From NCBI RefSeq assembly GCF_014280195.1, contig NZ_CP047960.1:630001-662000 (forward strand): a stretch of 32,000 nt of DNA, written 5' to 3'. Shown here piece after piece: positions 1 to 10,167 of the stretch. The notes beneath the pieces were generated by a model, which worked only from the letters and a program-made list of their open reading frames with translations, was not told the DNA's origin and searched no databases. Both the position numbers and the translations under genes were made by a program. The first letter of the stretch is position 1; each line of letters starts with the position of its first letter. This DNA comes from Synechococcus sp. A15-24 (GTDB taxonomy: Bacteria > Cyanobacteriota > Cyanobacteriia > PCC-6307 > Cyanobiaceae).

Positions 1-2
1 TT

Positions 3-227
3 GTTGAATCCGAGGATCAAAAAGGATTTGTATTTGAAGGGGCAGAGCCTACATTTAGCGATTTTTTGTACATATCTTATTCAATAGGCCTTACCTATTC
101 AATGACTGATTGTGGTATTAAGGATTCTTCCGTCAGGCGTGTTGTCATTATTCACTGTCTTTCATCATTTCTGTTTGCCTCAACAGTCCTCTCTATCATA
201 TTTTCATTGGCAACTAAAGTGAGTTGA
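3..227 (+). CDS. C-terminal fragment of a DUF1345-like integral membrane protein; the 5' end lies outside the window.
   Basis: Frame 3 is open from position 3 to TGA at 225-227. It translates to VESEDQKGFVFEGAEPTFSDFLYISYSIGLTYSMTDCGIKDSSVRRVVIIHCLSSFLFASTVLSIIFSLATKVS. The pattern (DFLY-S-SIG-T, D, RR, H, SF-F plus a hydrophobic tail) matches my recollection of the DUF1345 C-terminus. It is absent from the ORF track because it has no start codon in the window. Confidence 0.5.
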   Translation, partial: VESEDQKGFVFEGAEPTFSDFLYISYSIGLTYSMTDCGIKDSSVRRVVIIHCLSSFLFASTVLSIIFSLATKVS

Positions 228-257
228 CGTGTGAGGGACCAGCCCGGCGCACGTCAA
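224..257 (+). terminator. Hairpin overlapping the stop codon of the DUF1345-like ORF; a possible weak terminator or a palindromic operator.
   Basis: There is a perfect 8-bp inverted repeat, TTGACGTG (224-231) and CACGTCAA (250-257), with an 18-nt GC-rich loop, followed by TTTGTGTGCATTT. The loop is long for a classic intrinsic terminator. Confidence 0.3.
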
Positions 258-355
258 TTTGTGTGCATTTGCAATCATTTCGGAGGGTTGCTGTAATGAG
301 CACTTCCCAAAAACCAGATCATCTTTAAAATTCTGCTGATGAACCAAATTTTGTC

Positions 356-658
356 ATGTTTGAACTCGAGTATCTCGTTGCCTTTGGCTTGGGCGCTGGG
401 CTCGTCGCACTTACTCCTGTTGTAGCAGCTGCTGCCGGGAAAGAAAGTTCCATCACGAAATCTGTTGCAGGTGCTGGCCGCGGCCTTACAAAACAAGGCC
501 TTAAGGTCGGCCTCTTCGTGGGTGGCAAGGTGTCTGGACTCTTTTCTGGCGTAAAGTCTGGCATTAATGAAGTTGGTGAAAGCTTCGGCGACATCCTTGC
601 TGAAGCCAAAGCCGACATGGCGGCACCGAAAACCAAAACCGCATCACCAAAGGCTTAA
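356..658 (+). CDS. Small membrane protein, paralog A (100 aa). It has an N-terminal TM helix, a Gly-zipper/Lys-rich middle and an acidic C-terminal helix. It is DUF5132-like by recollection only.
   Basis: ATG at 356 and TAA at 656-658. The N-terminus MFELEYLVAFGLGAGLVALTPVV is paralogous to the ORF at 2238. G-x3-G repeats occur in GLFVGGKVSGLFSGVKSG. The C-terminal motif ESFGDILAEAKAD is shared with paralog B (ESFVDLVEEAKSE). Confidence 0.75.
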   Translation: MFELEYLVAFGLGAGLVALTPVVAAAAGKESSITKSVAGAGRGLTKQGLKVGLFVGGKVSGLFSGVKSGINEVGESFGDILAEAKADMAAPKTKTASPKA

Positions 659-661
659 GGC

Positions 662-1102
662 TTGCGAGTTACAGTTAAACACCGTATTTTTGGGCGCGTA
701 AGATTTTGTTGGCAAAAAAAATTAACATTCTATGACATGCATTTCATGGAATGTTCATTTTTTTTTGTGTTTCCCACATGTCGTTTTCGACCGGTTTCGG
801 GCAATTCTGGTTGTGTGATCCATTTTGATGAAGCTGCTGATCATTCACTCTTTTCTCAGATCACTACGTGGATAGGTGATTTCTTAGCAATTGGCAATTG
901 TCAGGGACCCTTGCTTCCACCGTCCAAGACGGATTTATTGATCGATAAGGCTAAAGGTTGGACAGCTCAGTCCATGATCGTAATAGCAATACTTGGCTGG
1001 ATTCTTCCAATTCTTCCAGGAACACCTTTTTTCTTACTAGCTTGGTGGCTTGGTTGGAGACCAGTATCGTCAACTGAGCTGTCAGTTGTGACTGAACCAT
1101 AG
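662..1102 (+). CDS. HMA2/CoBaHMA-like N-terminal domain fused to a DUF454/YbaN-like two-helix membrane hairpin (146 aa).
   Basis: The only start that keeps the conserved VKHRIFGRVRF strand is TTG at 662, which is 3 nt after and in frame with the upstream TAA. The second conserved strand is TCRFRPVSGNSGCVIHF. The C-terminal ILGWILPILPGTPFFLLAWW resembles the YbaN motif LP-LPTTPF-LLA. Internal A8 (714-721) and T9 (758-766) tracts are present. Confidence 0.6.
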   Translation: MRVTVKHRIFGRVRFCWQKKLTFYDMHFMECSFFFVFPTCRFRPVSGNSGCVIHFDEAADHSLFSQITTWIGDFLAIGNCQGPLLPPSKTDLLIDKAKGWTAQSMIVIAILGWILPILPGTPFFLLAWWLGWRPVSSTELSVVTEP

Positions 1103-2143
1103 AGTAAGCCATCCTAGAGCGATTTGAGCACGCTCACATTGCTTGGAAACGAACTCTGTTGGCAATGCAATACTTCGGCAATACCCATTGAATATCAAAT
1201 GTATGCTTGCGTCGACTTGTTCGATTTTTAAATTAGCCTTTGTCACACCCGGCAAGAATATTTTTGCGCAAAGTTTCTCTGTATCCCACTCCTCGATGCG
1301 ATTGCTTGCTCTCTTCTCATCATTTGTTTTGGCTTCTTCAACTAAAGCGGGAACTGCGATTGATTTGTTGATCATTATTGGTCCCTGTCGGCATTCATTC
1401 TCGAGTTCAACATTGGCTTCAGTACTTGCCTCCTCGACTATTAGAATATGAGGTATTGCACGGTGCATTCCAGCAATGCTAAGCCGATTCCTTAGCTGCG
1501 CAGGCTTGTAGTTCTTGCCGTCAAGAATTAATGTGAAATGATGATTGCTACGATCAGAGATCGTTTTTTGTAGGAGATGTAAGCGGCTTTTCCAGGCGTC
1601 GTTAAGACGCAACTGTTGTGACGAGGGCAAGCGTAGGCGTAGTATTTTTTCGACTGTCGAGAGTGTTTGGCGCGTTTTGTCCCACCAGTTGAGCAACGGC
1701 TCAAGCAATTGGTCGATCAAGGCTGGACCCTTTTGCGCCATGCCCAGGATTTTCAGTGCATGCAATGGCGTTGGCAGGATTGCGATCAAAATTGTCCCCA
1801 TTTGAGCACTCTCCAGTGCTTCTGAGAAGAAGATTAATTTGGTTAAATCTTCGATTCCAGGTATTGGAGGGAGCTCGGTTGATTGTTTAGAGGCAATGTC
1901 GAGCAGTTGCCACCACTCACTAGCGTGAGGATTGAGCTGCTTCCAAAGCTGCTTGAGAACACTGATATGGTCGAAGTATTGAATAATACAATTGTTGCTC
2001 GCCGTGAGCTGCGCGTGATCTAAATTGAACTCACCTGAAAGGTCATACAGCTTGATTTGACAATCTCTTGTCTGGTTCAAGAAAAAATCTTGCAACCATT
2101 GATGTATCGCCGTATACCTATCTGCGCTGACCAAGAGGATCAA
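1082..2143 (-). CDS. ArsA/Get3-like protein that lacks the P-loop and carries a C-terminal HSP20-like (ArsA_HSP20-type) domain (353 aa).
   Basis: TTG start at 2143 with an in-frame TAA at 2159-2161, so no Walker A can be encoded. The N-terminus ILLVSADRYTAI aligns with the ArsA LLVSTDPAHSL region. IPGIEDL followed by ILIAILPTPLHALKIL aligns with PG-eE and D-APTGHTLRLL. The C-terminus IFLPGVTKANLKIEQVDASIHLIFNGYCRSIALP resembles the ArsA HSP20-like tail. The 3' end overlaps ORF 662..1102 by 21 nt in convergent orientation. Confidence 0.65.
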   Translation of the reverse strand: MILLVSADRYTAIHQWLQDFFLNQTRDCQIKLYDLSGEFNLDHAQLTASNNCIIQYFDHISVLKQLWKQLNPHASEWWQLLDIASKQSTELPPIPGIEDLTKLIFFSEALESAQMGTILIAILPTPLHALKILGMAQKGPALIDQLLEPLLNWWDKTRQTLSTVEKILRLRLPSSQQLRLNDAWKSRLHLLQKTISDRSNHHFTLILDGKNYKPAQLRNRLSIAGMHRAIPHILIVEEASTEANVELENECRQGPIMINKSIAVPALVEEAKTNDEKRASNRIEEWDTEKLCAKIFLPGVTKANLKIEQVDASIHLIFNGYCRSIALPTEFVSKQCERAQIALGWLTLWFSHN

Positions 2144-2237
2144 GGCATTGTCTTCGTCTTAGAACGCCATTGTATCGGGGATGTCGTCGGAGGTTTCAAG
2201 AATTTTGAGTTATTATTTCTTGAACTTCCATGACACT

Positions 2238-2579
2238 ATGTTCGAGCTAGAAACCCTTGCGGCTTTTGGCGCGGGTGCTGCCTTGATGGCATTAGCTCCG
2301 GTAGTTCGCAAGATGGGTAATCAAGAACTTGGCGATTCAATGGGGCAGGCTGGTCGCACAATGGCCAAAGGTGGTGTCAAGGTTGGTCTTGTTGCAGCAG
2401 GCGTTGCAGGGAAAGTTGCCAAGGGTGTCGCTAAGAATGCCGCTGAAGTCGCTGAATCATTTGTAGACCTGGTTGAAGAGGCTAAATCCGAACGGGTTGA
2501 GCCAACGAACATTGATGATGCTCAGCCATCTGCCGAGGCCCCTCAATCTCAGAGAGTCACCAATGTGACTGTCGAGTAA
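2238..2579 (+). CDS. Small membrane protein, paralog B (113 aa), of the same family as 356..658.
   Basis: The internal ATG at 2238 gives MFELETLAAFGAGAALMALAPVV, collinear with the paralog A N-terminus. A Gly/Ala/Lys-rich middle is followed by ESFVDLVEEAKSE. The longer track ORF from 2181 adds 19 residues with no counterpart in the paralog. Confidence 0.75.
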   Translation: MFELETLAAFGAGAALMALAPVVRKMGNQELGDSMGQAGRTMAKGGVKVGLVAAGVAGKVAKGVAKNAAEVAESFVDLVEEAKSERVEPTNIDDAQPSAEAPQSQRVTNVTVE

Positions 2580-2621
2580 GTACGACTCCAGCACCCATCC
2601 AAAACTTCTCTCGAAAACACC

Positions 2622-5156
2622 ATGGCCACATCATTTCAGATTGATTCAGGTCTTGGGATCGTTGACGGAGGCGCTTCTACTCGAGCCTCCCGAGAGTACG
2701 TTCTACCAAGATTTATTGATCGCATTCTCCACGCTTCGCCCAGAAGACTTCGATTCAGTGTGGAGTCTGGTTTTCAAGATCCAGATAACTTTACACGTCA
2801 TATTAAATCTCTTGCATCAGTTGGACAGGTTCGTTTTAACAATTTGGCTTCGTGCTATGTCGTCGTTTTTAAGACAGGTCAATCAGTTGACGCACTTCAA
2901 TGGCTCAGTGCTTTGCCGCGACGAGCGCGTGAGATACCTTTTGTGCCAGAAGTTGCGCTAATTAATGCTGTAGATTCTTCAAATGTGCAGTTAGCTGAGG
3001 AAGAAGATGAAAAATTTGTCCCAACGCGCATTATACTCCCCGTCTGCTCTCTTGGCCTGGCGATAGCAGCTGGTCCTCTGTCCCTTCCTCCCCTTGCCGT
3101 TGGTGTTTTTATTATTGGTGCAGCACATCTGAGTTTTAAACGGGCTTGGGAGGGTTTAAAGAAAGAACGCAAGATTAATGTTGATTTCCTTGATGCTTTA
3201 GCTGTATTGCTTCACAGTTTGGAAGGATTTCTTCTGGGTCCGGCCATGATGATCACCATGATTGAGGGTGGTGAGGCTGTACGGGACGCCACCCAGCGAA
3301 TTGCCAATTCATCAAATACTGATCTGGTTTCAAGTCTTCAATCTGATGTTCGTCTTCTCACGGAAGATGGCGAGAAGATTGTTTCAAGTTTTGATCTTAA
3401 TCCGGGTGATCGGGTTTCCTTTTTGCCAGGTGACAAGATACCAATCGATGGCGTCATTGAATCTGGAGAAGCTTCCCTGGACGTTGTCAAGCTTACAGGT
3501 GAATCAGTTCCCAGAATGTCTGGCCCTGGAGAGGAAATCTTAGCAGGTTTTATCGTCCTCGAGGGTCACATTATTGTGACAACTTCAGCGGTCGGTGATG
3601 ATACACGTGTGGGGCAGATCACCAAAATGATTGAGTCCGCACCTGTATTTGATACACGTGTTGGTAATTTTGCCGCAAATATTGCCAATCACTTTGTTAT
3701 CCCAACATTGGTTCTTGCGGGTGTTTCCTTGTTGCTGAGTGCCGGCAACATTGCCCAGGCAGCGTCGCTGTTGATGTTCGATCTTGGAACTGGTTTACGT
3801 GTATCCGTTCCCACGGCCATTATGGCGGCTCTCACCAGAGCTGGAAGCCAGGGTCTGCTGATTCGCAGTGGACGAGCTCTTGAACAGTTGGTTGATGTGG
3901 ATGTTGTTGTGTTTGACAAAACCGGCACTTTGACAGAAGGTCATCCATCCGTTGTCGAATTTACGATATTTGATCAAACAGGGTCCCCCATCGAAGTTGT
4001 TGCTTCTGATCGCCTCAGGCATCTTTTGCAACTTTCCACCTCCCTGGAACAAGGCCTGAATCATCCAATCGCCAAGGCGATTCGTGATTTTGCTGCAGAG
4101 CAGGATGTCGAGGTTATTGACTGTGAAAGCTGGGATTACAGAGTTGGTCGTGGTGTCGTCGCCACTGTGAACGATCAGACCATTCTTCTAGGCAATTCAA
4201 AACTACTTCACGAAGAAGGGGTTGAGATCTGGTCAGTCGATTCCAAGCCGGAACTCGACGTGGCAACCCCAATTTATCTCGCTGTTGACGGCCTACTAGT
4301 TGGTATTCACTACGCACTTGATCGTGTGCGACCTGATACTCCAGCCATGATCGCTGAGTTGCATCGCCGTGGTATCGAAGCTCACATGCTTACGGGTGAT
4401 ATTTCCTCTGTTGCCCATGCAGTTGCTGCTGACATTGGACTGCAGCGGCACGAAGTTCATTCAGATGCCTTACCTGATCAGAAAGCTGAATTAGTTCAAA
4501 AGTTTACGGCTGAAGGCAAAAAAGTTGTCTTTGTGGGTGATGGTATCAACGATTCCGCAGCTCTTGCTTATGCAGATGTCTCTGTATCGTTTGCCTCAGG
4601 TAGCGACCTTGCTCGAGAAACTGCTGACATTGTTCTCACCAATGACCAGGTATCGGATTTGATTGTTGCTCAAGACTTAGCGAGACACACCTTTGCTTTG
4701 GTGAAGCAGAACATTGGAATTGTTGGAGTCCCGAATTTATCCGCACTTTTGATCGGTACGTTTCTTCCTGTTAATCCAATTGCTGCTGTTTTCCTCAACA
4801 ACGGTTCTTGTCTCGTGGCAGCGGGTAATGCGATCCGCGCTCTTGGCTTCAAGGCTAAATCACTTCCAGAGGTTGATGCTTCATCTGATGAAGTTCTAGT
4901 TGAGCCGATTTTGTCTGAAGCCTCAGAAGTCAGACCGATAACCAAAGATTCTATGGACGCTAAAACTACCTCTCCTTCCATCCAACTTGATCTGTCTGCC
5001 CTCTCCAGTCGGGTTGGCCTGAGTTACCAGAAGATCTCTGCTCGTCGTCGTCGGAGTGATTTCATTGACTGGATATCGGCCCATGATCCTGAGGGTTATG
5101 GTTGGGAGTACAGCAAGGATCGCAACACCTTTTCCATGGTTGCTGCGAATTCATGA
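2622..5156 (+). CDS. P1B-like P-type ATPase (844 aa) with an HMA2/CoBaHMA-like N-terminal domain, no CPx-type TM motif, and a C-terminal extension of about 100 aa.
   Basis: Motifs KLTGESVP (TGE), VVFDKTGTLT, LNHPIAKAI (P1B SEHP-like), MLTGD and GDGINDSAAL are all present. The N-terminus carries SPRRLRFSV and VGQVRFNNLASCYVVVF. The segment aligned to CPC-ALGLATPTAIM reads FDLGTGLRVSVPTAIM. Confidence 0.95.
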   Translation: MATSFQIDSGLGIVDGGASTRASREYVLPRFIDRILHASPRRLRFSVESGFQDPDNFTRHIKSLASVGQVRFNNLASCYVVVFKTGQSVDALQWLSALPRRAREIPFVPEVALINAVDSSNVQLAEEEDEKFVPTRIILPVCSLGLAIAAGPLSLPPLAVGVFIIGAAHLSFKRAWEGLKKERKINVDFLDALAVLLHSLEGFLLGPAMMITMIEGGEAVRDATQRIANSSNTDLVSSLQSDVRLLTEDGEKIVSSFDLNPGDRVSFLPGDKIPIDGVIESGEASLDVVKLTGESVPRMSGPGEEILAGFIVLEGHIIVTTSAVGDDTRVGQITKMIESAPVFDTRVGNFAANIANHFVIPTLVLAGVSLLLSAGNIAQAASLLMFDLGTGLRVSVPTAIMAALTRAGSQGLLIRSGRALEQLVDVDVVVFDKTGTLTEGHPSVVEFTIFDQTGSPIEVVASDRLRHLLQLSTSLEQGLNHPIAKAIRDFAAEQDVEVIDCESWDYRVGRGVVATVNDQTILLGNSKLLHEEGVEIWSVDSKPELDVATPIYLAVDGLLVGIHYALDRVRPDTPAMIAELHRRGIEAHMLTGDISSVAHAVAADIGLQRHEVHSDALPDQKAELVQKFTAEGKKVVFVGDGINDSAALAYADVSVSFASGSDLARETADIVLTNDQVSDLIVAQDLARHTFALVKQNIGIVGVPNLSALLIGTFLPVNPIAAVFLNNGSCLVAAGNAIRALGFKAKSLPEVDASSDEVLVEPILSEASEVRPITKDSMDAKTTSPSIQLDLSALSSRVGLSYQKISARRRRSDFIDWISAHDPEGYGWEYSKDRNTFSMVAANS

Positions 5157-5677
5157 CTCCGACGCTTCATTTGCGCCACCGTACAGATCATCGTTGGCGA
5201 TTCGTTGTGTCCCAATCATCTGCTCTTGATTGGGTCCGCTTGCAAAGTGACCTCCTCAATGTTTTCCCCCAGAGCAGCTGGTTTGTTCGCATCAACCAGA
5301 GGGTTGGTTCGATTGTTATTTGCCGATTGGCCTCAGCACCACGCCTTCGCCAAGATCCGCTGACGCTGGTGTTTGGTCGTATTGCTCAGCAATTGAACCT
5401 TCAAGGATTTTCCATTTCTGAAACTCCTTTGATACCAACTGAAATCATGGACCAGACCTCACAGAACTGGAGAAACACTATTCAGTCAGCGTTTCGTTTC
5501 ATTGCTAATGCTGCTTCTGTGTCCTTATCCATATCCACGTTGCTGTTCTCTTTCGCCATTTTTATAATCGGGTTTTTAGGTCTATTCATACCCTTTTCAC
5601 CCGGGATCTGGTTGTTGATTGCCGCAACAGCTCTCTTTGACCTCGCACTTACTTTTCGTCGCCCCTTCGTCGTTTAA
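5153..5677 (+). CDS. HMA2/CoBaHMA-like domain fused to a degenerate DUF454-like membrane hairpin (174 aa); paralog of 662..1102.
   Basis: The ATG at 5153 overlaps the ATPase TGA (ATGA at 5153-5156). The N-terminus has LRHRTDHRWRFVV and SWFVRINQRVGSIVICR. The C-terminus is FIIGFLGLFIPFSPGIWLLIAATALF. The longer track start at 5102 would lie inside the ATPase coding region. Confidence 0.65.
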   Translation: MTPTLHLRHRTDHRWRFVVSQSSALDWVRLQSDLLNVFPQSSWFVRINQRVGSIVICRLASAPRLRQDPLTLVFGRIAQQLNLQGFSISETPLIPTEIMDQTSQNWRNTIQSAFRFIANAASVSLSISTLLFSFAIFIIGFLGLFIPFSPGIWLLIAATALFDLALTFRRPFVV

Positions 5678-5689
5678 TCCCTTCTGATC

Positions 5690-7780
5690 ATGCTTACAGC
5701 GGTTTGCCCATCCCAATGGATTATCCGCAGTGAGCTGGTTGATCGGGTTCGTGTATTCCATCCAGGTTTATCCTCCTCGCCTGGATTACGCCAACATTGT
5801 GGGTCATTGTTGCATCGTACCCATTGGCTTCTCAGTCACCGTATCAATGCGGTGTCCTCCACAGTGGTGATTCGATTTCACCCTCGCCAGCGAGATGAAA
5901 TCACGCTTCTTCTCGAGCGTTGCTTCATTGAACCCGTTGCTGATTCAGGCCTTGAACAGGCATTGGCTGCAGAAACACGTATTACAGACATCACCCATAG
6001 TTCTTCTTTTCAACAGGCTCTGCGCAGTGGAGTGATTTGCGGTTCTGTTCTTCTCATTGATTCCATTCTGGCCATTCCCCCGTTGGGTCTTGGCTTGGTG
6101 GCCACCATGCTGAGCTTGCCGCTGTTGCGTGAATTTATTGAACAAGTGAAAGAGCGTCTTAAAGGCGAGGTTGATTCCAGACAATTGCTACCTCCAGCTT
6201 CGGTTGAAGTTGCCCTTTCAGCGATGTTGATTGGTTCAGGTTTGGCGCGCGAATCTCTTGTTGAAGGACTATTAGGAAGCTCTACGTCAGCGCTCCAGTC
6301 GATAAGTGAAAATACTGATGGCTCCAGTTCGGAGTTTTTTGTGTTTTTGGAGCGTATTAAGACTTCAGTGATGCTGAGATGTGTAGGTACTAAATCAGAG
6401 GGTAGTAGCTTATGTCCAATCGGGGATGTTCAAGTTGGTCAGCGCTATCGATTGATTGATGAGTATCACGTTTATTTACCCTCCAGGGTGGTCCAAGGAG
6501 AGTTGGTTGTAATTAATAGCCTCAGCGATGGCTCTCCCCTCCCGTTCCATGTAATTCCGGGTGATTTTCTTGCCTTTGGCGCATTTGTGCTGTCTGGCGA
6601 CGGTATTTGTGAAGTCGTTCAGCCTTTTTCTGAGATTGCTGCTTTTCAGATTGAGGACACTCTTCTGGAAGAGGAGCCATTAAGTGTTTTCCAGCAGCGT
6701 TTGTCCTCCTTGTACGACATTCTTTTGCCGCCTGTGCAGCTTGGATTTGGAGTTTGGTCATTACTTAATGGCCTCACAGAACGTGCTATTGGTTTGCTGG
6801 CTTTCAATCCGGCTGAAGATTCTGAGCATGCCTCTTTGTCTTCTGCTGAGTCAGCTTTGGTTGACATGGCACTCAATAATGTGCACATTTCTGATTCTCG
6901 CGTTTTGGACACACTGAGCGATGTGAGTCATGTTTTAGTCAGTGTTGATGCTATGCGACATCTTGGCTCTTATTCATATGAACAGAATTTGTCAAAGGAT
7001 GCATCTGGTTTTGGTTGTGACTTGCTTCAAATTCTATGGGCTATTGTCTCACATCTTGGTGCAGACCCAAGCTCTGTCTTTTGGGGTATTTTGAGTGATG
7101 TCCTAGAGAAACACCCGACACTTCAATCTCTTGAGGTAAACCTTGGTGAATCAGATCAAGGCCTTTACCACGTTGTTCTTGAAGGCCAGCCCAAGGTTTT
7201 GATCCGTTTTGAGGAAAAGGGTGAATCCATTCATGCTCTCTTTTCTACGTCAGATGCTTCTCTCGGTGGACTCACTATTGTCTGGCGGCCATCCCCAGAG
7301 TTTGAATCGGTGATGTCCCAGCTTTGTGAACTTGGCATTGCAGTTAGTACGGTTGGTTCTCATTCTGGGAGAACTAGGGAACCACAAGATCGCAAATCTA
7401 AGTTGCATGAACTTCAAAAAAATGGATCTAAAGTTGCTTACTTAGGTGATGTTGTTAATGATATCGCTGCTATGGCGGCAGCTGATGTAGCGATTGGTTT
7501 TTCAGAGGATGAAAAGGGCTTTATCTCTAAAACCGTCTGCGACGTTATTCTAGGCGGAGACATTCATTGGCTTTCTCGTCTTTTTGTTCTTAGCCGTAAT
7601 TATGTGCAATCTAATCATTTTAACACGAATTTGATTGTTGTTTCATCAATTCTGCTTGCTGCGGCTTCTTTTGCGGCTACCTTCTCTCCCCTCCAAACAA
7701 TTGTCCTGTTTAATGCAGCCCCTGTTATTGCCGAAATCAATACATTGCGATCTCTAAATTTTTCTAGGACAAGAAGTTAA
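5690..7780 (+). CDS. Degenerate P-type ATPase paralog (696 aa) with an HMA2/CoBaHMA-like N-terminus. The catalytic motifs are eroded, so it is a probable pseudoenzyme.
   Basis: It is collinear with the neighbouring ATPase. TGES is replaced by SLSDGSPLP, DKTGT by LVSVDAMRHLG, and no TGD is recognisable. Only GDVVNDIAAMAAADVAIGF (GDxxND) survives. The N-terminus has VDRVRVFH and LLSHRINAVSSTVVIRF. The ORF is intact over 2.1 kb. Confidence 0.85.
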   Translation: MLTAVCPSQWIIRSELVDRVRVFHPGLSSSPGLRQHCGSLLHRTHWLLSHRINAVSSTVVIRFHPRQRDEITLLLERCFIEPVADSGLEQALAAETRITDITHSSSFQQALRSGVICGSVLLIDSILAIPPLGLGLVATMLSLPLLREFIEQVKERLKGEVDSRQLLPPASVEVALSAMLIGSGLARESLVEGLLGSSTSALQSISENTDGSSSEFFVFLERIKTSVMLRCVGTKSEGSSLCPIGDVQVGQRYRLIDEYHVYLPSRVVQGELVVINSLSDGSPLPFHVIPGDFLAFGAFVLSGDGICEVVQPFSEIAAFQIEDTLLEEEPLSVFQQRLSSLYDILLPPVQLGFGVWSLLNGLTERAIGLLAFNPAEDSEHASLSSAESALVDMALNNVHISDSRVLDTLSDVSHVLVSVDAMRHLGSYSYEQNLSKDASGFGCDLLQILWAIVSHLGADPSSVFWGILSDVLEKHPTLQSLEVNLGESDQGLYHVVLEGQPKVLIRFEEKGESIHALFSTSDASLGGLTIVWRPSPEFESVMSQLCELGIAVSTVGSHSGRTREPQDRKSKLHELQKNGSKVAYLGDVVNDIAAMAAADVAIGFSEDEKGFISKTVCDVILGGDIHWLSRLFVLSRNYVQSNHFNTNLIVVSSILLAAASFAATFSPLQTIVLFNAAPVIAEINTLRSLNFSRTRS

Positions 7781-7822
7781 CTCATTAGCTTTATTTAGGT
7801 TATAGATTTTTGCTGAATGACG

Positions 7823-8431
7823 CTAATGCGCCAATATATTTATTCCGAGAGCTATAAACAAAGCACCACTTATGTACAAGAGTCGTTTTTGGCATAGGCG
7901 TTTTTTTAAGCATTTCCCTGACGATACCGCCATAATCGCAAGAAGAAAGTTAGCCGCTACTGCTCCAGAAAAAATGCTTTCTGCAGATATGTTTGGCCCA
8001 GCGGCTAATGCAAGAAGCGCAAGTTGCGTGCGGTCACCGAACTCAGCTAAAAATGTTGTCGCAAACGAGTTGCGAATCACCTCGTTTGCGGGCATTGCTA
8101 GTTCTACTGATTCAAATGTTTTTTTGGTTCCTTCTTCGTTGGTGGCAACATGAAGGCTTGATTTCATTTTTCTTGCTTCGAGAAATGCGTTGGCTCCGAA
8201 TAGGAGAAATGCCACTCCTGAGAAGATTTGAATGGTATCGATGGATATGACCGATTTCATCCATACCCCGGCTGTAATCCAAAGTCCTGCGCCGATTGTT
8301 AGGGCCGAAACGCTTCCAGTGAAAACCCAACGAGCTTTATGCCTTGCCGCGAGAACAAGAGTGGTTAAGAATGATTTATCTCCTACGCCCGCGATGGCGA
8401 CCGTGGCGAATGCTGTAGTAAAGCCAGCCAC
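7823..8431 (-). CDS. UPF0016/GDT1-family (TMEM165/Mnx-type) cation transporter (202 aa).
   Basis: It has a two-repeat membrane architecture. The second signature is canonical (EFGDRTQ). The first reads GVGDKSF, with Gly where Glu is expected. The start is GTG at 8431, with an upstream in-frame stop at 8456-8458. Confidence 0.85.
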   Translation of the reverse strand: MAGFTTAFATVAIAGVGDKSFLTTLVLAARHKARWVFTGSVSALTIGAGLWITAGVWMKSVISIDTIQIFSGVAFLLFGANAFLEARKMKSSLHVATNEEGTKKTFESVELAMPANEVIRNSFATTFLAEFGDRTQLALLALAAGPNISAESIFSGAVAANFLLAIMAVSSGKCLKKRLCQKRLLYISGALFIALGINILAH

Positions 8432-8508
8432 ATACCTAGGGAAATTTCTGACAAGCTATCGGAGATGTCTTTTCCCTGTTGCTCGCGTCAGTGCATGTGG
8501 ATATGGCT

Positions 8509-9036
8509 TCAGCGATCCGTGGGTTCCTTGACAAGCCAGGCTGTGCGCTGTCCGGCTCGACTGATTCGTTCAAACTCTAATCCCATTCTGTGAAAACCCC
8601 GTTGCCCACTGGATAATTGCTCCGTCTGCGGCAAGCGCTTGATCTCGAGAAGTGAGCAGATTTCGTGACCTGTGAGTTCGATTTGCGTGGTTTTGAGCAG
8701 ATCTAGAACTTCAATCCTTTCTCGTAATAAACGTAGCTTGGAATACTTTCTGACATCGTCTTCGATTGGCGGCTCTGAGCTGGTTTCGGTTGTTGCCAGT
8801 TCGTGGTGTGTGAAGTTGGTTTCCACTGTGACCACTTCCGCGACCAGGGGCTCTTTCGGATTGGCCCGTCCCAGGTGGTCATAGATGCGTCCCGTTTCTT
8901 CTTGTCGAATCCAGGTGCGCATGCCTCGTCGGATCGGCTCAATACCGAGTTCACGCATCACCAGCAGTAGGTCAACCCGCGACAGACCGAGGTCAGACTC
9001 CAGACTGCCAAGACTGACCGCTTGTTGTGAGCTCAT
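8509..9036 (-). CDS. Hypothetical protein (175 aa), possibly HTH-like at the N-terminus; it sits at the compositional boundary.
   Basis: ATG at 9036 and TGA at 8509-8511, with intermediate GC. The N-terminus LGSLESDLGLSRVDLLLVMRELGIEPIRRGMRTWI looks like a small DNA-binding helix bundle. No family was recognised. Confidence 0.55.
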   Translation of the reverse strand: MSSQQAVSLGSLESDLGLSRVDLLLVMRELGIEPIRRGMRTWIRQEETGRIYDHLGRANPKEPLVAEVVTVETNFTHHELATTETSSEPPIEDDVRKYSKLRLLRERIEVLDLLKTTQIELTGHEICSLLEIKRLPQTEQLSSGQRGFHRMGLEFERISRAGQRTAWLVKEPTDR

Positions 9037-9101
9037 GCTGGGAACTTCTACAAGACCTTTTTACTCGTTGTTCACGTCCAGTTGTCAATTGTCTTCGGCT
9101 C

Positions 9102-9138
9102 AAAAAAACGTGCGTGAAGCCATTTCACTCCACACACG
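9102..9138 (-). terminator. Intrinsic terminator downstream of cysK.
   Basis: The minus-strand RNA reads CGUG-ugugga-GUGAA-auggc-UUCAC-g-CACG followed by U7 (plus-strand A-run at 9102-9108). It lies 43 nt after the cysK stop. Confidence 0.55.
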
Positions 9139-9180
9139 CGTTGATCGCTCTAGTCGATTTGAGGCTCCAGTGATCCTGAG

Positions 9181-10167
9181 TCAGACTGCGACAGGCTGCT
9201 CGATGATGCCGGTGGGCACATCGGCGAACATGACCGACGAGAGATAGCGCTCGGCCAGGTCGGGCAGCACTACCACGATGGTTTTGCCGGCGTAGGCGTC
9301 CTGTTCCGCCAGGCGGATGGCAGCTGCGGCGGCGGCTCCACAGGAGATGCCTACCAACAGACCCTCTTCCTGGGCCAGGCGCAGGGCCATGGCGATCGAT
9401 TCGTCATTGGTCACCTGCTCCACCTTGTCGACCATGGACATGTCCAGGTTCTTAGGGATGAAGCCGGCGCCGATGCCCTGGATCTTGTGGGGACCGGGCT
9501 TGACCGTTTCTCCGTTGATTGTCTGGGTGATCACCGGGCTATGGCTGGGTTCCACGGCGACGGATTCGATCGCTTTGCCGGCTTCGTTCTTGATGTAGCG
9601 GGACACACCGGTGATGGTGCCGCCGGTGCCGACGCCAGCCACCAGCACATCGATGGCACCGTCACAGTCGTTCCAGATCTCCGGACCAGTGGTCTTGAAG
9701 TGGATATCGGGGTTGGCGGGATTGTCGAACTGCCCTGGCATGAAGTACTTGCCGGGATCGCTGTCGGCAATCTCCTTGGCCTTGGCGATGGCACCGGGCA
9801 TGCCCTTGGCGGCCTCGGTGAGGATCAGCTCGGCGCCAAGAACGGCCATCATCCGGCGACGCTCGATCGACATCGACTCGGGCATCGTCAGAATCAGTTT
9901 GTAGCCGCGGGCCGCCGCTGTAAAGGCGAGGGCGATTCCGGTATTGCCGGAGGTGGGCTCGACAATCACCTTGTCTTTGGTGAGCTTGCCGCTCTTCTCG
10001 GCATCCCAAATCATGTTGGCGCCGATCCGGCACTTCACGCTGTAAGCGGGATTGCGACCTTCGACCTTTGCCAGCACGGTGGCTTTGCAGTTCTTGGTGA
10101 CGCTGTTCAGCTTCACCAGCGGGGTGTTGCCGATGGCGAGGCTGTTGTCGTCGTAAATGCGGGACAT
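9181..10167 (-). CDS. cysK: O-acetylserine sulfhydrylase / cysteine synthase A (328 aa).
   Basis: The full-length ORF starts [21 protein letters not shown]. It carries the PLP-lysine context SVKCRIG, the [10 protein letters not shown] loop and the GTGGT motif typical of CysK. Confidence 0.95.

Follow-up and report, generated by a model that had tools for sequence, protein, structure and literature searches.

A putative catalytically inactive P-type ATPase kept by selection beside an active pump in picocyanobacteria

Pairing of an active protomer with a paralog that stabilises or regulates it is familiar from the heterodimeric ATP-binding cassette (ABC) exporters, in which one ATP site is dead, and from MamB and MamM of magnetosomes, which work in a biomineralising organelle. 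P-type ATPases have been studied as thoroughly as almost any membrane enzyme, yet the searchable literature describes no family of separate, full-length but catalytically dead members that has long been kept beside an active pump. Here we analyse such a candidate, the 696-amino-acid (aa) product of the gene at positions 5690-7780 of a 32,000-nucleotide (nt) stretch of Synechococcus sp. A15-24 (the window; NCBI RefSeq assembly GCF_014280195.1, contig NZ_CP047960.1, positions 630,001 to 662,000, forward strand), which we call the dead pump and which is encoded near an apparently active 844-aa P1B-type ATPase (the partner pump). Its likeness to the ABC exporters and to MamB/MamM lies in the combination of an active and a degenerate paralog; it differs from them by superfamily, and its pairing is one of neighbouring genes.

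Our literature search on pseudo P-type ATPases gave a sole match, the degenerate flippase modules of alveolate guanylate cyclases, chimeras whose P4-ATPase modules have lost the Asp of DKTGT and the Glu of DGET in some lineages and have been retained (PMC13466520). The dead pump shares with them this retention of a degenerate module, but the alveolate modules are eukaryotic, fused to a cyclase, unpaired with an active paralog and of another subfamily (PMC13466520). A further described setting is the calcyanin neighbourhood of cyanobacteria forming intracellular amorphous Ca-carbonate (iACC), where genes for DUF5132, CoBaHMA-DUF454 and cax adjoin the calcyanin gene ccyA (PMC8890360; bioRxiv 10.1101/2024.07.07.602159); hallmarks of the CoBaHMA domain are conserved basic residues on β1/β2 and a His on β0 (PMC8890360). 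Our locus shares with this neighbourhood a basic ferredoxin-like head domain and the DUF5132 and CoBaHMA-DUF454 neighbours, and its freshwater versions include a protein with a CoBaHMA domain and glycine zippers. It differs in that ccyA is absent from this genome and from six other marine carriers, the HMA_2 match is sub-threshold and the β0 His is replaced. Neither calcyanin/CoBaHMA paper mentions the pump/dead-pump pair (PMC8890360; bioRxiv 10.1101/2024.07.07.602159), and the pair is undescribed in a wider search covering CoBaHMA, calcyanin and pseudo P-type ATPases, with the Gaschignard 2024 CoBaHMA paper outside its reach, as are the dead-pump records in a search by accession number. Within that reach nothing contradicts the claim, made in an earlier reading of the window from its letters alone (the sequence-only reading), that paired active and inactive P-type ATPases are undescribed in bacteria.

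The sequence-only reading had also taken the protein for a P-type ATPase without its catalytic motifs, while allowing that careful alignment might find the catalytic Asp intact. All 36 + 5 members of the family alignment have Ser, Thr or Ala at the phospho-Asp position, and none has Asp. In the dead pump of A15-24 this position is Ser418, a residue nearly invariant across the family (Thr in a few) whose neighbours vary by clade (V-D-A-M, R-S-C-L, E-G-S). The loss of DKTGT had thus been read rightly within LVSVDAMRHLG (aa 416-426), in a register one residue off: V-D-A-M-R had been set opposite the motif, the true counterpart being S418-V-D420-A-M. D420 was considered as a substitute catalytic Asp and rejected, because this position varies between D, N and S. 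The actuator loop, found within SLSDGSPLP (aa 277-285), has likewise lost its TGE as proposed, the Glu position of TGES being Ser282, invariant in the marine clade and D/E-W in the freshwater clade. The HP of the pump's nucleotide-binding (N) domain aligns with A-D at an unconserved position, and TGD, also noted as missing, is replaced by V-G-S, after which 26 aa are deleted in the marine clade only; freshwater members have G-S-D. The Lys position of PxxK is an invariant Arg (R568). GDVVND (aa 586-591), described earlier as all that remains of the motifs, is indeed present, with G586 and D591 invariant, but D587, the first Asp of GDGxND, is unconserved in the family (D/N/Y/S). The retained set comprises the hinge of the phosphorylation (P) domain and structural residues of membrane helices M5 and M6 (D591, D618, R630, N645, P667, E682). 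A CPx-, SPC- or PCP-type motif in helix M4 is absent both from the dead pump (F-N-P-A-E-D) and from the partner (F-D-L-G-T). These alignments show a protein that, having lost the phospho-Asp, the TGE glutamate, the nucleotide-binding HP and TGD, cannot form an aspartyl-phosphate or run the P-type cycle, and from which the known ATP contacts are gone.

Recognising the protein as a P1B-type ATPase requires profiles and structure, because single-sequence matches are sub-threshold or confined to the C-terminus: BLASTP against the 844-aa neighbour aligns no more than aa 565-691 (at 27% identity), the NCBIfam P1B models and PDB sequences cover just aa 555-690, and the Pfam E1-E2_ATPase and Hydrolase matches both fall below threshold. 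In contrast, profile alignment (hhalign) of 36 dead-family members with 16 partner pumps runs over 659 collinear columns from the N-terminal head to the last helix (probability 100%, E 2.6e-41), and hydrophobic segments lie at corresponding positions in the two proteins. A whole-database profile search reached ordinary P1B pumps (E 1e-11 to 1e-18), in many cases through one unbroken stretch over profile positions ~236-690. An AlphaFold2 (AF2) model built on 24 homologs, with a predicted local distance difference test score (pLDDT) of 68.6 overall and 78-93 across the P and N domains, was matched by Foldseek to ZntA (4umw) at E 1e-23 over 645 columns with template modelling (TM) scores of 0.55/0.62, ZntA, CopA, ATP7B and CadA together spanning E 1e-23 to 1e-18. 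The collinearity with P1B ATPases proposed earlier is confirmed by hhalign and Foldseek alike, and the predicted protein is shown by these comparisons to keep the whole P1B architecture, with a CoBaHMA-like head, eight membrane helices and the actuator (A), P and N folds. With ZntA, CopA and CadA it therefore shares overall fold, domain order, helix number and an N-terminal HMA-superfamily domain, and it retains the P-domain hinge and M5 structural residues D591, D618, R630 and N645; unlike them it is without phospho-Asp, TGE Glu, HP, TGD and CPx/SPC, and its marine clade carries the P-domain deletion. The head itself scores 15.9 bits (E 0.013) against Pfam HMA_2 (PF19991) and so does not reach the gathering cut-off of 30, a freshwater member scoring 15.8 bits. 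Its modelled strands fit the b-b-a-b-b-a layout (pLDDT 60-72), and the β0 position is R13, not His.

The extent of the gene is as previously described, an uninterrupted 2.1-kb frame whose ATG (5690) follows the TAA of the preceding gene (5675-5677) after 12 nt. In the public gene calls for this genome the protein is too short (656 and 657 aa, from codon 40/41); the 40 residues they miss (window 5690-5809) include W10, R19, R21, H24 and P25, invariant in homologs, and for this reason ATG 5690 is likely to be the true start. The annotation can be corrected accordingly: the call in A15-24 is short by 40 codons, and in Synechococcus CC9605 and CC9616 the dead pump is a "hypothetical protein".

A word-indexed search returned 34 homologs of 690-714 aa and 46-92% identity, nearly all from marine metagenomes. 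Codon alignments were made with the three closest metagenomic copies (92, 87 and 82% identity) and a sister species, covering 78-92% identity. The ratio of non-synonymous to synonymous substitution rates (dN/dS, omega) is 0.10-0.28 for the dead pump, as against 0.05-0.08 for the active pump, 0.09-0.23 for the neighbouring GDT1 gene and 0.01-0.06 for the core gene cysK. In the three pairs without saturation (dS 0.19-0.34), non-synonymous changes fall far short of the neutral expectation (P 4e-18 to 6e-30). Omega is 0.12-0.21 overall and 0.07-0.38 per domain, the "dead" P and N domains included. All but one of the copies in the genome surveys have no internal stop codon, and the frame is kept down to 25% identity; in the exception (G527; L052 8594-13892) stop codons split both pump and dead pump, which could reflect joint decay or an assembly error. 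These data support the prediction of the sequence-only reading that this is a pseudoenzyme kept by purifying selection and not a decaying pseudogene. Slow decay with a frame open by chance would fit an evolutionary rate two to three times that of the active neighbour, the very long stem branches and the in-frame stop of the one genome. It is ruled out for practical purposes by an omega of about 0.2 (neutrality rejected at P<1e-17), by the omega of the single domains, by invariant residues distributed along the entire protein and by a 2.1-kb frame intact in about 30 species.

Genes for the active pump, a small CoBaHMA-like membrane protein and the dead pump follow one another in this order at about 22 loci in 7 genera of picocyanobacteria, as the end of a recurring block DUF5132 / CoBa-DUF454 / ArsA-like / DUF5132 / pump / CoBa-TM / dead pump, with identities of 58-86% for the pump and 25-79% for the dead pump. 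Of 401 genomes sampled from the family, 36 carry the pump; the dead pump is present in 30 of these (28 by profile and 2 confirmed by reading of open reading frames, ORFs) and in none of the remaining 365. In a class-wide sample, also of 401 genomes, a family member at E<=1e-25 was found only in the window's own genome. The sequence-only reading had placed the two ATPase genes in tandem; their closeness holds, but they are not strictly tandem because a 174-aa gene separates them, here and in every cluster, its ATG (5153) overlapping the TGA of the pump gene as ATGA. The surveys show an apparently fixed three-gene unit, inside a putative cation/carbonate-handling cluster and retained by purifying selection. 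In one freshwater genome the small CoBaHMA gene and the dead-pump gene are separated by an inserted 529-aa gene (L062 6832-8421, minus strand).

A quick maximum-likelihood (ML) tree, whose long branches leave deeper placements uncertain, sets CoBaHMA-type proteins apart from CPC-type pumps (support 100). The picocyanobacterial dead proteins group with those resembling a distant metagenomic protein (P0078) in one clade on a very long stem (Shimodaira-Hasegawa-like approximate likelihood-ratio test, SH-aLRT, 100), and the partner pumps make up a clade of their own (99), to which the partner of P0078 is sister. Since the two clades are separate and their branching is mirrored, the pair, judged from this tree, is old and co-inherited. 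The dead gene as a recent duplicate of its neighbour was rejected, given the separate old clades and a BLAST identity of 27% over 130 residues. The P0078 contig (46% GC, guanine plus cytosine content) has the same arrangement: the genes for an active pump, a 121-aa CoBaHMA membrane protein and the dead pump overlap stop to start, and a gene for an ArsA_HSP20 protein comes next; a search with P0078 itself matched only two active CoBaHMA pumps. Another contig (P0093) encodes an active CoBaHMA pump, two DUF5132-like proteins, a dead pump and DUF1345. Among the top 150 database matches 25 full-length proteins are without DKTGT, 14 of them outside the close family: the P0078-like clade has S/A/T-E at the Asp site, two other proteins have a plain D-to-A change and others are partly degenerate. 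Eight CoBaHMA-type pumps (P0093, P0171, P0096, P0125, P0166, P0114, P0152, P0159) have lost DKTGT independently, partly or completely, by D-to-A, by DKTAT or by deletion of the N domain, and degeneration thus recurs in the clade.

On balance, the gene data make it somewhat probable that the dead pump serves as a non-catalytic accessory or regulatory subunit acting with the pump and the small CoBaHMA protein. The three CoBaHMA-headed proteins would share a membrane and work jointly; by way of the membrane domain that it still has (conserved N373, N645, E682) and of its basic head, the dead copy would, for instance, stabilise, target or gate the pump and the adjoining cation/H+ antiporters. The ion would most likely be Ca2+ or another hard divalent cation, because of the GDT1 and CAX neighbours, the calcyanin link, the Asp/Asn/Ser in place of Cys in the pump's helices and the conserved Asn/Glu of the dead copy. 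Several observations weigh against so simple a picture. The co-occurrence is partly trivial, as the genes travel in one island. In one genome (G719; L049 8513-10663 and L074) the island is without the dead pump and the Na+/H+ exchanger, and the dead-pump gene is found intact in another low-GC patch at a distance of 460 kb; in three genomes of one genus extra dead-pump paralogs come immediately after a Na_Ca_ex/CAX gene, far from any pump. Because of these copies a strict one-to-one subunit model is doubtful, and the dead protein may not be a dedicated pump subunit. The Ca2+ assignment draws only on the neighbours and on the missing Cys/His metal motifs, and calcyanin has no match in this genome or in 6 other marine carriers, so that the link to carbonate granules is indirect here.

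Of the other functions that these observations allow, we regard as unlikely an autonomous passive ion pathway, or ion-gated leak, that would serve beside any cation transporter, its remaining membrane domain conducting or binding cations independently of ATP, with the soluble domains as plug or sensor and without being a pump subunit. It would account for the polar or charged residues conserved in M4, M5 and M6 (N373, N645, E682), for the paralogs, which are translationally coupled to a CAX antiporter away from any pump, for the unlinked but intact gene of G719 and for GDT1 as convergent neighbour; yet no dead pump occurs in a genome lacking the partner pump (0/365), M4 is highly polar past FNP, model confidence is low in the N-terminal membrane part, and we know of no natural P-type ATPase that works as a channel. 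A role in scaffolding or targeting, in which the basic head and the large cytosolic domains would arrange or label a dedicated membrane or compartment (a mineral or ion store) independently of ion binding, seems improbable. The same head domain is found in four proteins of the cluster and in the calcyanin of the freshwater clusters, anionic-lipid binding has been proposed for CoBaHMA (as quoted in the calcyanin/CoBaHMA literature), and a P-loop-less ArsA/Get3-like protein is present, all of which would suit such a role; but the membrane, A, P and N domains are equally under selection, and the invariant coupling residues D591, D618, R630 and N645 go beyond a passive scaffold's need. Persisting enzymatic activity from a shifted or altered active site, built perhaps on Ser418 or on an acidic side chain close by, we consider very improbable: the near invariance of Ser418 and the retention of D591, D618 and R568 would be expected in that case, but the flanks of Ser418 differ by clade, the HP motif is missing, TGD has been lost or deleted and D587 of the GDGxND motif varies.

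The dead pump offers a natural system in which to study what the pump scaffold does without its chemistry, in regulation, gating or targeting, and a concrete, testable component of the machinery around calcyanin and intracellular carbonate formation. A bolder extension, which we hold to be speculative, is that pump, small CoBaHMA protein and dead pump constitute the first known heteromeric P1B-type transporter, with an inactive protomer that would gate or direct the loading of cations into an intracellular Ca/carbonate store. Were this true, its occurrence in calcyanin-less open-ocean Synechococcus (for example CC9605 and CC9616) would point to unrecognised cation-carbonate storage in abundant marine picocyanobacteria.

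Table. Coordinates of the dead pump, its motifs and the surrounding genes (window positions; positions with an L prefix refer to other loci)
Feature	Position	Strand	Remarks
Putative catalytically dead P1B-type ATPase paralog	5690..7780	+	696-aa ORF, stop-free
CoBaHMA/HMA_2-like domain, aa 1-85	5690..5944	+	R19, R21, R51, N53 invariant
Actuator loop D-G-S-P (aa 280-283; G281, S282) replacing TGES	6527..6538	+	
M4 motif F372-N373-P374 opposite the partner's F-D-L	6803..6811	+	no CPx metal motif
S418-V-D-A-M replacing DKTGT	6941..6955	+	Ser418 at phospho-Asp position
GDVVND, remnant of GDGxND	7445..7462	+	G586, D591 invariant
M5-M6 with conserved N645, P667, A681, E682	7565..7777	+	
174-aa protein, CoBaHMA-like head and C-terminal membrane hairpin	5153..5677	+	
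Active partner, 844-aa P1B-like ATPase with TGES, DKTGT, HP, TGD, GDGIND	2622..5156	+	M4 FDLGTG..SVPTA, no CPC
Small DUF5132-like membrane protein, upstream of pump	2181..2579	+	
ArsA-like protein with HSP20-like tail	1082..2143	-	no Pfam-level P-loop match; in every cluster
DUF5132 protein	356-658	+	
CoBaHMA-like/DUF454 protein	662-1102	+	
GDT1/UPF0016 divalent cation/H+ antiporter	7823..8431	-	convergent with dead pump
175-aa protein, no family match	8509..9036	-	conserved at cluster edge
Extra dead-pump paralogs after Na_Ca_ex/CAX	L050 6632-11234; L053 8029-10419; L058 7965-10229		tandem pair in G597
302-aa calcyanin-like ORF	L051 2432-3340; L054 15441-16349	-; +	inside freshwater clusters

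The unit lies in a low-GC island that fills the window from position 1 to about 9100 (GC 42-50% against 60-65% elsewhere; 38-39% at third codon positions, GC3, against 82% in cysK), between queA-like and cysK-like core genes, a site common to 7 marine species genomes of the genus including CC9605 and CC9616. With the 10 kb upstream included, the order is β-carbonic anhydrase (minus strand), Na+/H+ exchanger, DUF1345, DUF5132, CoBaHMA-like/DUF454, ArsA-like (minus), DUF5132-like, pump, CoBaHMA-like membrane protein, dead pump, GDT1/UPF0016 (minus) and the 175-aa protein (minus). The cluster of freshwater and brackish members of the family matches its host genome in GC (60-67%), and this difference suggests that the marine copy came from a low-GC donor. 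The freshwater clusters also hold a 302-aa calcyanin-like ORF that joins a CoBaHMA head to three glycine-zipper-like stretches but has no Pfam match; ccyA lies inside the cluster in two freshwater carriers (G597, G485) and elsewhere in the genome in a third (G615). A promoter and terminator scan of window positions 1-9300 gave no more sites than shuffled sequence.

The C-terminal tail of the active pump, about 100 aa long, has a conserved RRRR-DF--WI motif, and its M4 sequence FDLGTG..SVPTA is also conserved. The ArsA/Get3-like protein, which has a weak partial ArsA_ATPase match and is conserved even on a distant contig (L075), is apparently a second dead ATPase of the cluster. Contigs binned as Rhodopirellula sp. 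(L001, DOPG01000004.1, and MAI32287.1) carry a 78%-identical dead pump and are probably mis-binned marine Synechococcus DNA.

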